From the NCBI GenBank assembly GCA_905331295.1, contig CAJNYD010000132.1:260863-312064 (forward strand): a stretch of DNA of 51,202 bases, written 5' to 3'. The stretch comes from Rotaria socialis. Taxonomy: Eukaryota. Each line of letters opens with the position of its first letter. Positions within the stretch are counted from its first letter, which is position 1. The notes beneath the pieces are model-generated. The model did no database searches, was not told the DNA's origin, and worked only from the letters and a program-made list of their open reading frames with translations. Made by a program: the position numbers and the translations under genes. Below are positions 6,880-29,632 of this stretch, piece by piece.

Positions 6880-8195
6880 CTATTTCAGAACGTATTCAAC
6901 GTGCATATTTAGATAGACCATCCTAAGTATTCAAAAGAAGTAAAGATCAGAATATTTTCAAATAAACTTACCAGTAAATAATATTGAATACAATAAAAGC
7001 AACGGGGAAAAGAACTGCGGAGACAATATCAACCTTGTTTGAAAAATAAAAACAGTAAATTCCGAGGATAATTTTCTTTTGCTATTAACTTACAAATTGT
7101 GCACTGTCACGAATAGGCTTAGCTGGCTGCGCTATACGAGCCGGCTGAGGCACGGCAATCACTGGTGGTGGTGGTGGTGGTGGTGGTGGTGGCGCAATAG
7201 CTGGTGTCGATGATGTTACATTTGCGTTTGACATGGATGAATATTGTACATGAGAGCTAGTATTACCACTTGTATTTCTATCCCCACCACTAGATTTATG
7301 AACCAGTGTCTCCATCATTTCACCACCATCCTGTGCATCATCTTTTTTATAAAAATGTACTTGAGCAAGACGATTTCCAATAACCTAAGAAGATGATATA
7401 GAATATGTTTCTGCAAAATAATGTCACAATATATTACACAACAGATAAACTCATACAATATAGAAATAGATAAAAATCTGCTTGTAAATCATATAACAAA
7501 TAATAAAATTAAAATAAAGAAACTAATAATATTATGTGTATAGTGAAAATTATTTAAAACAAAATATAAAATAATTTGTGATGGTAAATATGTGAATGAG
7601 TGAAAGAAGAAGAAAAATAATAACAAGGGGGGGAAATATAATCTAGTGACTAATTTACTCTCTCAGCAGCAAAAGATGAACCATTCTGTAGCCTTTGAAT
7701 CAAAGTTAATTTCGGCGGTCTGTTCGAACTTTTCTTCTATAAAAATAAATTTTATAATAATAATAAAAATACTAAATTCTAGTGTATTGATGATTGCAAG
7801 AAATAACAGAAAATAACAAAAGAAAAAGAAAGTCTTTTGATTTTGTTATACAAACAACTTACTTCTTTTGAAAAGCGAACTTGCTGTCGTAATTCACCTT
7901 TGCGTGCAATAACATTGACCAATGCATATTCAAGTAAACCAGCAAAAACAAATACAAGGCATGCTGACATCCATACGTCAATTGCTTTGATATAAGACAC
8001 ACGCGGGAGTTGTGATCGTATACCTACATACAGGACATATATCATATTCTCTATTGCTAATTAGTATGACAAAAGGCATTAGGCAAAGCAAAAAAAAAGC
8101 AAGAGGCGCTATGGGATTTATCATTGTTACCTGAGCTTTGTGTAGTAACGGTAAGAACAGTTAAAAGCCCGACTGAAATTCTTGCTGGAACCTTA

Positions 8196-8231
<36 letters not shown>

Positions 8232-10246
8232 CTATGAATGAAAATATCAGCTCTAATGTATTTAATAATCTTACCGATTTATGATCAATCCAGAATGAGA
8301 CAAATGAAAGAATTACAATGAGCATTGATGGAATATAAACTTGAACTATATTAAATGATTTTCTTATGTTTTTTCTTCTTCTTCTCGTCAAATAATAAGC
8401 ACGATTAAACTCACCGAGATAATAACCAAATAGACGCTTTAAATGAAGCACAACAAGAAGGCATGTAAAACTGCCTAGAATATTAATCGTTCGAAGAAAA
8501 CAAAGCTACTATATAAGTGATGATAGAAAAAAAAAACTTTCTTCATTGACACATTTCTTTTTGCTGCTCATGTAGATATCAAAGAAAAGGAAACGGAAAT
8601 TATTTATAATCGGAAAAAAAATATTATAAAAAAGATACTGAACAATAAAATGTAAATTAGTGCATGTGTTTAAATATAATCACGGCTGAATAACACAAAA
8701 TACTAGTGCATTAATCATTACATATTGTGTGTTTAAATAGTTGTGCAAGCAAAATGCGCGTGTCTGTGCTAGCTTTACAATTGAAAAAAGCACAAAAAGA
8801 CGTGCGTTTTTTTGTACCTTCAGCTTTTGTTGTTAAAGTAACAATGCAAAGCAAACTTAATAAAGTTCGTGCAGGATGTGATTTATAGTCGACCCAAAAC
8901 GCAACAAATGATAAAGCAACTATCAATGTTGCCGGTAAATACAGTTGTTGGATATATAAATTGACATTTCGTTGAAATGCTAGGTGTACTTCAAGACAAG
9001 TGTACGTGCCTATGAGGGGAGTGAAGGAAAACTTAGTTATCACAAAGTAAGTTAGAATTGGTGCTGTATATTATTAGCAATACAATGAAATTGTGAGAGA
9101 AATGAAGAAAGTTGTTTTTTCTTTCGAAAATTATGAATAACGTAGATATCTAACCTGTTGCTGTTGTTCGATTACAATACCGTGCTTCGTGGTTACTCAA
9201 AACAAAGTCAGGCATTTCAAGGTCTTCATTTACTCTGATAGCACTTATATTTTGGGTTTCATCCCAAAAGAACGCCAAATCAGTTGTACCAAAACCGTCT
9301 AAATCAAGACCAAAATATAAATCAGAAAATAAAACAAAAAAAAAGTAATGTATGGATTAATTAAATGAATACTGTTCTTTCTTTTTTTTTAATTTATTAT
9401 TTGAAAGATTTTTTTTTCATATAAATTCCTGTTTGTTTTTTAGATAGAAAAAAAAAGCTTAAGACGACTTCTCTAGAGAGATTTAACGTACAGCTGCCAA
9501 TGTTGACAACACATGTTTGATTATCAAGTGGAAATTTTTGTAATTTCATTTGGCAATCAAGTTTAAGTAGAAGTCTAAACATATAATAAATATATGAAAT
9601 AATAATTTATGCTGGATTTTTCGTTAAATAATAATCAAACCTTTGACTGTACAGTACTTTTCCATCGAGATGAATACGAATTAATCGATTGGGTACTGTG
9701 ATGTCACTTCGTTTACCTTCTTTAGCATTACGAAAAAAAGAATCAGGTACCCATATACGATCAATAAGTGAATAGTGCAATGTAATCTGTGGTGATTTTT
9801 TTGCCCAATCTGTTCCTGAATAATTCAATCTTGGATCGTACCATGACTGACGAAAAATCAAATCAGTATTATAATCCTAATCAAAGAAAAGCGACATATA
9901 ATGAATATAATTTGAATAAAACCAGCTGTATTCTCATTAATGAACATGTCTTACCATGTTAACTTCATTGATAGCTGAAATCGTGTTAATATGAATCGTC
10001 ATCGTCACATTGCACGGTTCTGTAATAGAACAGTCTCGTGAAAATAAAAGCTGAAAAATAAAATTCAATGTACTAACTTCGCTGATCAAAAAATGGTCGA
10101 ATTCGCCTATCATAATGGCTTGAATTAATGAGTGTATCAAGAAATTCTTCAACTGTATTTATTGATGCATCATTGTGTAATAAATTTGCACTAGAAATAA
10201 GTGTGAAGATTATTGTTACAATATATAGATCGATGTGTAGACACAT
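6880..10246 (-). CDS. Cys-loop ligand-gated chloride channel subunit, glycine-receptor/GluCl-like
   Basis: Exons 10246-10078, 10019-9955, 9876-9641, 9574-9492, 9298-9155, then either 9009-8818 or 8474-8415 + 8345-8275 + 8191-8131, then 8023-7863, 7736-7659, 7384-7094, 7033-6972, 6922-6880. Motifs: [25 protein letters not shown], Cys-loop [15 protein letters not shown], loop [10 protein letters not shown](S/T)(F/Y)TC, anion-selective PAR, M3 [20 protein letters not shown]4 [21 protein letters not shown]. Confidence 0.93.
8131..8474 (-). CDS. Alternative pore block B (three exons, 60+71+61 nt) of the Cys-loop channel
   Basis: Encodes [64 protein letters not shown] with canonical GT-AG junctions. 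Confidence 0.88.
8818..9009 (-). CDS. Alternative pore exon A (loop C end, M1, M2) of the Cys-loop channel
   Basis: 192 nt, no stops. Acceptor ttctaac...ttttccttcactcccctcatag, donor G|gtacaa. Encodes [64 protein letters not shown]. Confidence 0.85.
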
Positions 10247-25140: not shown

Positions 25141-27337
25141 AGCTGGGGATAACTTATAACATCGTGCTTAGCATTGTATAAGTTTCATTTTGTGACATAC
25201 AATGCAAGACAATTTTTCGAATATTGCAGGTGTGTGTGTGTGTGTGACGGCACAAGCGTCACGAGTGTTATCTTAGTGCCTGTTTGTTTCTTTTTCTAGC
25301 TTCCCTCTCTTTTTCTGTTGTTTGTTTTTGCACCTAATGTTGACAATTCATTATTCTTATTCTTCTCTTGTTTCATCAAGCTTCTTCATATATCTCTCTT
25401 CACTGAGATATACCTATACTCATTCTTTCAATACCTTTTGTTCATCATTCGAACGTATCTTCTCTGACTACTATTTTTCTTCTCTATCAAAAAGAATCAT
25501 CTTTTTGATTAATTGCATATTACCTTTCTTTCAACTTGATTGTTCCCTACAATCGTTCCAACTCGTGTCAGCTACTTGCTTGTGGAGTTCTTCTTATTCT
25601 CAACTATTTGTGTTCATTGAATAAACTATTGGATCTTCATTCAATATTCAATACTATTTTATTTCCATTGTTGTCATTCTGCCATAACCAGTACTGTAGC
25701 AACTGGCATTGTTATTAGTTGCGTCTCTGATTCTTATCAAAGCGTTACAGGGGAAGGTGGGACGGCGGTCAACTCCACACACCCACACCCACACCCAAAA
25801 ACGAATAGAGAATTCTCCATTCGTTTTTCGAAACTAATGCTGAAATCGTGTTCTACCTCTAAAACGTGCAAATCACTCAACCAAGTATTCGACGTTGTAT
25901 TACGTGCGGTCGTTTTTATCAATTCATTTTGCTAAATATTCTTTTGCACCTGATAAACGAAACAGGTATAGTCATAGCAGCAGCGACAAGAAATATAACA
26001 GTTGGAATTGTCTGTTTCAGTGACATTCAAGCAGAGAAAAAATTTCGAAAACGCGTTTAAACGCACAGAGAACGACGAAAAATCGAGAAAAGTGGGCATG
26101 TTTGGATGACAATAGAGGTCCCCAATTTTAAGCGAAAAACGCTCATTGTTCGCTCCAAGTGTGCATTCAAACGTGTCTACAGCTCACAGTTAGGATCCCC
26201 GATTATCATACAAGCACACCCACTTTTCCTGAATTTTTTCCTCTTTTTTGTACATTTAAAAGTGGTTTTCCAAATTCTTCTTTCTTTGAGAAATGGTTCA
26301 GCGTAGAGGTCATTACTGTTTTATTTTGAACCTTTTAACATCTGCTTCCGAACTTAAATTCCATTGTATAATGAGGAGAGATTAGTTTTCATTTCTAATG
26401 CAAAAAGTTTTACTATCGACTGAAAAAGAATGTAACCGTGCAGTTTTTTATTGTGTCTAGCATTATAAAAAATCATTTTTTTCTAAAAACAACCAGTGGT
26501 AGGGCTCGCATCTCCAGTGGGTAGGCTGAGTCCAACCATGCCCTACCCTGGTTACGTCACTAGCCCACACCTGCTGACTAAACCCTTTCAAATAATACTT
26601 ACTGTTCCTTTTGTTATTACGACTAGCCTAAGTAAAAGAAATTAAAAACCTTATTTGTTTTATCATCATAATAACCTATTATTTTGTATTTGATTTTCAA
26701 CTAAAAGGGTAAAAAGAAAAATTATACTTACGTATGATTTTCAATTTTCTTTTCTATCCAACTAAAAGGCTGAAAGAAGTAAGTATCTAAAACAAATGAT
26801 GCTTGCATTTGATGGGATCGCTTCGAAAAATCTAAATCAAAAACGATTGATTCACGAAAATAATAATTGCATACAATTTTTTATCTTACTCATGAAATTC
26901 TTCGAGATTTACGAATAAATACTTAGGTTTACTATAGACGCCTCACCTACATAAAACAAAGTTTCATTTTGTTTTTCAGGCTGATCTAATTTATGGAGAA
27001 TGACAATCGTTTAAAATGAGGTTACAAGCTATTGCAACATAGAGAGAGAGCGAGCTGTTATTCTGTTTCTCACTAATCTTTGTTTCTATTCTACGATTTC
27101 CTATCTAATCATAAAAATACTTGATGAATAGTGTTACCAACCAGAAAAGTCAACATCATTTTGATATATATATGTTTAACGTATCTGATTTGCATTCAGT
27201 GAAAAAAATCTATTTTATGGAAGGGTACAATAAGAAACCGTTTGAATACACGGATCGAACAATAAACCTTTCATTGTAGAATCATAAATCCTTCTCCTTA
27301 AATTCTGGTGCAATAAATCCTTTTTATTTTCAAATAT

Positions 27338-27634
27338 CCCAGGTCGAACAGTCCGGCCGGGAAACGGTCGGTTCCGAGTAGTTCCGTTGATTTTGTGAAA
27401 GCAGTATTTCGGTTGAAAAATTTTCGCATTTTTTCCAGTGATTTCCGATCAATTCCTGTCGGAAAGCACCGGAACTTGGCACGAATTATCCGGAAAAGTC
27501 CGGCCGTATTTTTGACCGGAATACTGCTTCCATGTTCCCACGATTTCCCGTGTTTTCCTGCAGGATATGGTGACTTTTCCGCATATTCCCTGGAGTATCC
27601 TACAGAATCCGGTGGCCGGAATGTTCGACCTGGG
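27338..27634. mobile_element. MITE copy 1 (297 bp)
   Basis: 21-bp TIR cccaggtcgaacagtccggcc / ggccggaatgttcgacctggg with 1 mismatch. GC-rich against an AT-rich background. Confidence 0.85.
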
Positions 27635-27641
27635 ACCCTTA

Positions 27642-27939
27642 CCCAGGTCGTGGACGTACGGCGGGAAACGGCCGGAAAGCACAGGAAAGCGCTGGAAACT
27701 GGAAGCAGTATTCCAGTTGGAAGTTACCGGATTTTCTTCCTGTAGATTCCGATCAACTTCCAGATGTAAAACACAGAAAAATGACCGGAAAACACAGGAA
27801 AAAAATCCGGTAACTTCCAACTAGAATACTGCTTCCAGTTTCCAGTGCTTTCCCATGCTTTCCGGCCAGATACGGTGATTTTTCCGCATCTTTCCGGCCG
27901 GTTCCTACAGTATCCGTCCTCCGGAATCATTGACCTGGG
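27642..27939. mobile_element. MITE copy 2 (298 bp), related family, largely palindromic, TA on both flanks
   Basis: cccaggtc...gacctggg termini. Long internal inverted repeat ggaaactggaagcagtattccagttggaagttaccggatt / aatccggtaacttccaactagaatactgcttccagtttcc. Confidence 0.85.
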
Positions 27940-29632
27940 TAGTTTCATCAACGCTTCAGGCAATTCGTATACACTTTTAGAGTTTTGGACGAAAACATAA
28001 ACCATTTTAGGGTTTATAAAACTTATTTTCTAGTACTAGAGTTTAGTATTCTACGATTTTTTTCTAGTGCACACACCCACACTATAGGGACGCAACGGTG
28101 ACGGTGTATCACCGGTTCACCGTCCACCGGTAACCGGTCGTACTAAACTAGCTCTGATTGGAACTAGTTGCTAAAGGCAACAATTAGTTTTGGTCTCCCA
28201 TGGTTTCAACAGCACTTTAGCGACCACAAATGTAATTATTCAAAGTCAAAATTTTAAGTTGAGGATATATTAATGGCGCTGGCCATTTCTCTTTCTTTCA
28301 GATATTTTCTTAAGAATTGCTGATAGTGGAGTTGACATGCAGGTGATTTAACTGCATTGAGTACTCATTGACAGATGCTATATACATTAATGCGATTGCC
28401 TAGATAAAGATGGATCGTGTGATAGTCTTTTTGTACTTTAGACGACTTCATCAGCATAGTTTCTACATTATCTGAGATCATCATACTCATGTCTAAATAG
28501 TTGATCACAAAGTTCAAAGTTTTGCAAAATTCTACTAGAACTGCTATATAATTAAAATTATTTACTTGAAAATTGATTGTTATCTATTGAATAAGTACTA
28601 GGAATGAAATATCAATTGAAGGAAAAATTATTTTTCGAGAATATATGTTATTTTACAAGACAAAATAGAGAAAATTTATTTTTATGCGATATACGCCTAA
28701 ACGTCTAATGTTTGCCAAATGAAAAGCATCTATGTTATTAGTACCAACAAATTCGCTGTTTTCTCCACTGTACGCTGCCTTTTTGCATAGGTGTCTAATT
28801 TTTGTTATGGAAGAAATTCATCAAAGAAAGTAGGTATGTACTATATAAATCTATTCTATGATAGGAGTCTGTTGGAATTCTTGAATGAACTGGCTAGTAC
28901 CATTGTTGAAACCTATCTCCTTGGAATACAAAAATTATGGCCAATTTGAGAAGTATGACACAAACAGAAGCTTGAAATTAGAATATGAAATATCATCTGC
29001 TTGTGCATGATTGCGTTCATACATATTGAGAACAATATATCAAATATGACATTCTTTCTTCGTCTACAATAAAACATGGATTTTCGTTTCTTCTAGTACT
29101 ATTTTGGTCAATTAAAACGTGTTTGTGCAGTCTTTTACTTAATTATATTATAAGGCTGACGGTCAACATGAATACGCGTCACAATGCAATACTGATGTTT
29201 TTTTTTCAGTAGAAATTCTATCGTAAACATGATTGTATTATGCAAATTGAACAACGTCACCCTACATTAGAACTATAGATGCAACAAACACAGTCATTCA
29301 TATACAATACTAATGATAGTACCTACAAACGCTGATCAACAAATTCACTGCAAGTCAATAATATTAAAAAAAAATATAAGTAACTCGGGGAAAGCTGATT
29401 AAGTTTTGCTTGTTTCTGAAAAATAGACATTATATTAAATTAGAAATAGGAATTAAGAGAAGTAGAAGAAGAGAATAGAATAGGAAAGAAACATCGTTTA
29501 GAAAAGAAAATTATCGCTTTCTTGTGAATATGCATCATGTCAAGATGATTCTATGTGTAAGTATAAAAAAGAAGTAGCTTATAGTTAGCATATCTTTATG
29601 TCTCTCAGCTAGATTTAGTTCATTTAGTACTT

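Follow-up and report, generated by a model that had tools for sequence, protein, structure and literature searches.

The window, a stretch of 51,202 nt from Rotaria socialis, contains on its minus strand a glycine-receptor-like chloride-channel gene of this bdelloid rotifer. As read from the sequence, the gene product comprises a ligand-binding domain with a C-x13-C loop and a four-helix membrane domain; matching proteins carry the precomputed annotations PF02931 and PF02932. Judging by resemblance, we take the neighbouring genes, likewise on the minus strand, to encode Vps51 (3580-912), a pyridoxal-dependent decarboxylase-domain protein (22293-18115), a DOMON/cytochrome b561 protein (37956-35752), MSS4 (47761-47312) and a bromodomain protein (47277-43528). 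A GC-richer stretch around 27200-28030, in which either strand has long open frames and peptide words recur, is likely a repeat or a small mobile element. The parts of the channel gene are collected in Table 1.

Table 1. Exons of the channel gene and its conserved intron boxes, in window coordinates
Feature	Positions	Strand	Basis or remark
Shared ligand-binding-domain exons	10190-10078, 10019-9955, 9876-9641, 9574-9492	-	Cys loop in the last; sequence, contigs
Shared loop-C exon (e5)	9155..9298	-	phase-1 donor at 9155; joints to 9009 and 8474 in contigs
Intron box S1 (core)	9101..9113	-	41 nt behind the e5 donor; complement of box D
Exon A, intronless beta10-M1-M2 module	8818..9009 (192 nt)	-	divergent M2: 2' Leu, 4' Ser, 9' Val
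Box C, conserved	8743..8765	-	about 55 nt behind the A donor; predicted partner of its 5' part: start of the M3 exon (a lead only)
Box D, conserved, in the A-B1 intron	8535..8569	-	60 nt before the B1 acceptor; predicted docking site of S1
Exon B1	8415..8474 (60 nt)	-	sequence, contig
Exon B2 (M1)	8275..8345 (71 nt)	-	sequence, contig
Exon B3 (M2, ancestral-type pore)	8131..8191 (61 nt)	-	sequence, contig, tree
S2 candidate and YGCY-rich stretch, B3-M3 intron	8083..8098	-	pairing with D non-significant here, strong in L010 and L002
Shared exon, M2-M3 linker and M3	7863..8023	-	8004-7995 is the predicted partner of box C
Shared 3' exons	7736-7659 (cassette), 7384-7094, 7033-6972 (M4), 6922-6880 (stop)	-	contigs

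The solved structures that exon A matches best are glycine receptor alpha chains (E 8e-12), and by likeness to these chains the channel would conduct chloride. The Pro-Ala-Arg motif precedes M2 in A in 10 of 10 loci and in B in 7 of 7. Translated with the splice through A, the gene gives a protein that matches the NCBI model P0186, named Rotaria socialis, without any difference between the first shared exon and the stop. The AlphaFold model of this A-type isoform is ordinary (beta10 followed by the M1-M4 fold; mean pLDDT 63.8, with moderate confidence in the membrane part) and does not discriminate between the readings that are weighed below. Three candidate signal-peptide starts were seen on the minus strand: 14815-14633, which is joined to 10190 in an X2 contig end; 12443-12324, which resembles the beginning of the Adineta vaga protein P0028; and 10246-10191, an in-frame extension that is used by several models. 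Contigs of X1, X3 and X4 contain the 78-nt cassette exon of the M3-M4 loop; an X1 loose end at 7861 and the second gene copy in X2 skip it (the runs are described below).

Behind the shared loop-C exon the gene holds two paralogous versions of the stretch from strand beta10 to M2, namely exon A and block B, in which the same 192 nt are divided over three exons (60 + 71 + 61). All borders are AG/GT, both modules are entered and left in phase 1, and together with the shared exons they give open frames of equal length. In a gapless alignment 30 of 63 amino acids are identical and 33 are changed, and nucleotide identity is highest at the second and lowest at the third codon positions (32, 46 and 23 of 63 for positions 1, 2 and 3, respectively). 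Among the protein variants, M2 of A differs from M2 of B by Leu for Ser at 2' (21 of 21), Ser for Gly at 4' (21 of 21) and Val for Leu at 9' (20 of 21), positions that are numbered after the glycine receptors and that we take to be pore-facing. Two smaller observations concern block B. The B1-B2 intron (8414-8346, minus strand, 69 nt) is open in frame in the window, probably by chance, since it measures 59-66 nt in other copies; and the synonymous sites of B are unusually fixed, 14 of 32 four-fold sites being invariant over seven loci as against 5 of 25 in the M3 exon, which hints at splicing signals inside B.

The distribution of exon A was traced in proteins and in genomic loci. A protein search with exon A alone matched 30 proteins among 53 candidates. 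At 74-100% identity A is found in models of Rotaria socialis, R. magnacalcarata, R. sp. Silwood1, Adineta ricciae, A. steineri and A. vaga, and it also occurs in Didymodactylos carnosus (P0304), which in the available text of the genome study is a distant outgroup to Rotaria and Adineta (PMC7943196). Fifteen metagenome loci were fetched by exon A patterns, a sampling that cannot show how often A is lost; merging of near-identical loci left eight distinct genomic loci that include the first two introns, an overlapping fragment (L015) and a spliced contig (L004). Exon A is 192 nt long and intronless in all 14 loci that hold it in full, and the two introns of B (49-83 nt) lie at the same places wherever B is covered. 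Pairwise dN/dS, calculated from the six loci that have both modules, amounts to 0.125 for A (at a dS of 0.88) and to 0.023 for B; A changes about five times faster than B. The low ratio, the fixed length and the lack of any stop across the deepest bdelloid split argue that selection acts on the protein encoded by A and not only on splice signals; to judge from this conservation, exon A is no relic, and it is old and selected at the protein level. The original prediction had described the layout of the two modules, their gapless though strongly diverged alignment and selection on both. Its coordinates proved exact to the base, its phases and lengths hold, the alignment and the dN/dS values bear out the rest, and A, whose absence or disruption in relatives it had named as counter-evidence, is intact in Rotaria, Adineta and Didymodactylos.

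A tree built from 25 modules unites the nine A sequences in a single clade (100/100) on a long stem, and B falls near Brachionus and Seison; the bootstrap of this tree is not fully settled. Six unnamed ORFs match the module unbroken, beginning and ending at the same Gly residues as exon A, and then continue in unrelated sequence; one of them is 94% identical to Brachionus calyciflorus P0307, and all six group with that protein (94/93). These monogonont-like ORFs are best read as genomic single exons with the borders of A; a scan of bacterial genome contigs turned up no monogonont locus. As judged from ORF borders, not from genomic DNA, the ancestral state was likely one intronless 192-nt exon, and B would have gained two introns after the duplication. 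The simplest history would then start with a duplication in the bdelloid stem, after which the conserved copy gained two introns and the other first changed fast and then became fixed. This likely origin of the one-versus-three asymmetry is an addition to the original prediction. An origin of A as a retroposed copy was considered and is disfavoured, because relatives already have an intronless exon with the same borders.

Parts of the gene occur in five runs, none of which is recorded as RNA; we read them as spliced RNA because their contigs skip GT-AG introns, and the joints reported here come from contigs of four runs (X1-X4). A 1002-nt contig of X2 (depth 13), nearly identical to the window, has the loop-C exon spliced to A (9155-9009), and the independent contig L004, spliced across the entire ligand-binding domain, likewise leads into A. 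For block B, an X1 contig with 0 differences from the window runs through B1, B2, B3 and the M3 exon. The loop-C exon of a second gene copy is joined to B1 in contigs of X2 and X4; that of X4 combines the loop-C exon of the second copy with B letters identical to the window and is possibly an assembly chimera. For the window's own copy the 9155-8474 join therefore depends on a 10-letter loose end in X1. A full-length B-only protein (P0177) stems from a 1946-nt contig, and its N-terminal part is the same as that of P0017, the protein of L004. From these joints (to A in X2 and L004; to B1 in the X1, X2 and X4 contigs and in P0177) it follows that both acceptors are used.

The far end of A gives a different picture. 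All three contigs that cross it continue unspliced into the intron (for 256 nt, to 8562, in X2; for 106 nt in L004; for 9 nt in X4), and the X4 contig is also unspliced on the other side of A. Neither an 8818-8023 nor an 8818-8474 joint was found in the contigs of X1-X4, which show presence only, and the 3' exons of the window's gene copy have no cover in X2. When short proteins were searched with the A-to-M3 region, no junction of this kind that derives from a transcript emerged. The 10 of 298 proteins that contain this junction were rejected as splice evidence, all being NCBI gene models; the rotifer models were made by BRAKER according to the available text of the genome study (PMC7943196). 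Gene models were likewise rejected as arbiters of exon choice, a single A. steineri gene having B-only, A-only and A+B models. Every contig over the end of A runs on into the intron, and the join of A to the M3 exon is an interpretation. Of the junctions by which the original prediction had proposed to check itself, 9155-to-9009, 9155-to-8474 and 8131-to-8023 were recovered in contigs. It would have been contradicted by transcripts that never include A, and the X2 and L004 contigs carry the loop-C-A joint; nor are A and B always included together, the loop-C exon being spliced straight to B1. Both upstream joins and the full B path are supported in this way; its central claim of two channels with different pores stays provisional, as do the 8818-to-8023 join and the product of A.

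The introns around the two modules contain pairing elements that were absent from the original prediction and are new here. Box S1 is the reverse complement of box D, and their pairing is predicted to extend about 25 nt beyond the core of S1. When the two introns are paired over their whole length, 0 of 200 shuffles attain a duplex as good as the real one in eight of the nine distinct loci, and 3 of 200 do so in the ninth. On the alignment 87.7% of 293 cells are paired, compared with 43-56% in slid controls; five of 34 pairs have changed on both sides. As high a count arises in 79 of 500 shuffles, and as high a covariation score in 7 of 500. L011, the most distant locus, carries a fully matched 10-pair extension of its own. 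Folds of the whole region place D on S1 in five of six loci; the exception is the window, where D pairs inside its own intron and where the S1-D duplex is the weakest (-25.7 vs -35 to -42 kcal/mol). It is likely that the predicted S1-D stem would loop out exon A.

The pairings on the downstream side vary more between loci. In some copies box D is also the predicted docking site of S2 in the B3-M3 intron: the shuffles that attain this duplex number 0 of 200 in L010 and L002 and 9 of 200 in L005 and L011, and it is non-significant in the window, L015 and L009 (52, 61 and 93 of 200, respectively); when S2 and S1 are compared with box D alone, the test favours S1, D having been picked by its match to S1. 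With the first intron removed from the fold, D moves to the B3-M3 intron in three of six loci. In four of seven loci, that of the window included, no control window pairs as well with box C as the beginning of the M3 exon does, and in two more this pairing ranks in the top 4%; it fails (432 of 1140 windows) in L010, the locus with the strongest downstream pairing of D. The core of this pairing has only 5-10 pairs and its test is post hoc, and no consistent partner of box C was found in the e5-A intron, exon A or the B3-M3 intron. At the core of its partner in the M3 exon an Arg codon is invariant in 7 of 7 loci, compared with 5 of 25 comparable sites. We treat the pairing of box C with the M3 exon as a lead, and the predicted downstream pairings, which form a weaker case than the S1-D stem, would loop out B. 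The B3-M3 intron is also rich in YGCY, which we take to be the Muscleblind site motif (36 in 1353 nt over seven loci vs 1 in 902 nt across eight further introns in the window). Rfam returned four weak hits, all below the gathering score.

Taken as a whole, we consider mutually exclusive, RNA-steered splicing that yields two full-length subunits from one gene to be the best explanation, with a probability of roughly 60%. In the default state S1 would pair with D, as predicted, exon A would be looped out and the loop-C exon would join B1, the product that is seen in the contigs. The two short introns of B would be removed, after which B would act as one 192-nt exon, so that the exon choice becomes an ordinary two-way one. 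In the alternative state the loop-C exon joins A, as it does in X2 and L004, and S1 would thereby be removed; D would be freed to pair downstream, box C may pair with the M3 exon, B would be looped out and A would join the M3 exon in a slow or regulated step. This kinetic order of the splicing steps is our proposal. B keeps the ancestral pore, and the pore of A changed quickly and then became fixed. By analogy with UNC-49C, the A-type product would most likely be a minor, modulating subunit in mixed pentamers.

The open frame through A and B suggests another product, a subunit with two tandem M1-M2 hairpins translated from one mRNA with both modules, and many NCBI models are drawn in this way. 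We find this quite improbable: the loop-C exon is spliced straight to B1, so joint inclusion is not obligatory; the three kinds of model for the one A. steineri gene mean that models decide nothing; and such a subunit would repeat a beta strand of the extracellular domain between two membrane hairpins, an arrangement that we know of in no Cys-loop subunit. The intron that is read past A bears on two further explanations. Read-through from A gives tails of 12-65 aa that share no common sequence and then meets a stop. Exon A could accordingly be a regulated dead end, in which the retained intron with its premature stop leads to decay and lowers the amount of B channel, or simply a decaying duplicate, and its roughly fivefold faster evolution would agree with this; a dN/dS this low at dS near 0.9, in a module of fixed length that is stop-free across the deepest bdelloid split, makes such a fate about as improbable as the tandem product.

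More weight, though still that of an unlikely explanation, goes to A as the last coding exon, with the next intron either kept or cut and polyadenylated. The product would be a truncated regulator or dominant negative made of the ligand-binding domain, M1, M2 and a short tail, and the S1-D pairing would still switch A off. The continuation of three of three contigs over the A donor into the intron is what it predicts, although a slow intron would also leave partly spliced RNA. It further agrees with the weak downstream pairing in three of seven loci and has a precedent in the truncated AVR-14A of Dirofilaria immitis, as described in the available text of PMC8841521. However, 11 of 11 sequences have AG|GTA as their donor even though the residues that it would encode vary, the tails are unconserved, AATAAA is present past A in two of 11 sequences and no polyadenylation hexamer is shared. 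The M2 of A is moreover conserved up to its last residues, as for a helix that runs into the M2-M3 linker.

The full-length reading with two exclusive modules can be compared with several known systems, for which we refer to those parts of the cited articles that were available. In its splicing logic the closest appears to be exon 4.1/4.2 of Drosophila serpent (srp), which is controlled by bidirectional RNA pairing (PMC4691838): there, too, conserved elements lie before, between and after two duplicated modules, and the upstream stem includes the second module and the downstream stem the first. In the rotifer gene, however, the second module consists of three exons, only the upstream stem is well supported as a prediction, and a single central box seems, in some copies, to work in both directions. 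Related logic is found in exons 7a/7b of human ATE1, where two similar elements compete for one element between the duplicated exons (PMC7797038); both competitors precede each exon directly there, whereas the second rotifer competitor would lie after block B. Duplication itself has been proposed to create competing pairings (PMC6071210). A block of several exons is chosen as a unit in swaps of the GNAO1 exon 7-8 type, but these are gene-terminal and exchange equal numbers of exons (PMC8373072, PMC5896119).

With regard to the channel, exon 8 of the insect nAChR alpha6 gene includes part of TM2 (PMC6393475, PMC1919356), and its variants 8a/8b/8c are likewise internal, mutually exclusive exons by which a Cys-loop subunit alters its pore helix; the variant that is used most is also the most conserved. 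They are single short exons covering part of TM2 in a nicotinic subunit, whereas the rotifer gene would exchange the whole of beta10-M1-M2 in an anion-type channel, where one exon faces three and 33 of 63 residues differ. In unc-49 and avr-14 one ligand-binding N-terminus is spliced to alternative C-termini with their membrane domains; one variant works alone and the other modulates, UNC-49C and AVR-14A being inactive alone and UNC-49C shifting the picrotoxin IC50 from 0.9 to 166 uM (PMC8841521). In a protein named UNC-49 (P0031) the modules even begin at the same beta10 strand. These are terminal swaps with their own M3, M4 and 3' end, in contrast to the rotifer swap, which would be internal and would rejoin a shared M3-M4. 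The alpha6 case, as a pore-changing splice choice, and the multi-exon 3' swaps of unc-49 and avr-14 mean that the novelty claimed in the original prediction was overstated. A split alternative, with one exon against several, is not found in the available text of PMC2257972, and our search of article texts (supplements with gene-structure tables lay outside its scope) found no literature on this gene or on an internal one-versus-several exon swap.

A more specific claim, that an internal one-versus-three-exon switch run by a kinetic RNA fold makes a standard and a beta-like subunit from one gene in all sampled bdelloid lineages, is tentative, and we put it at slightly less than even odds. If it is true, the first splice would itself remove the box that silences A, and 2' Leu and 9' Val would alter the gating and the blocker sensitivity of the pentamer. 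Exon choice by RNA pairing would then work on an internal multi-exon block and survive intron gain in one of the alternatives, for which the literature search gave no case in the rotifer group. Owing to the short introns the whole switch measures about 1.3 kb and would fit a minigene, and A would provide a naturally occurring variant of the pore, in which selection has fixed positions 2', 4' and 9' while the subunit is otherwise the same. Public gene models that fuse A and B are unreliable for this gene. Tandem beta10-M1 or M1-M2 repeats were also seen in P0042 and P0184 (unnamed), P0044 (Hyalella azteca) and P0048 (Branchiostoma belcheri), which are possible cases of independent pore-exon duplication.
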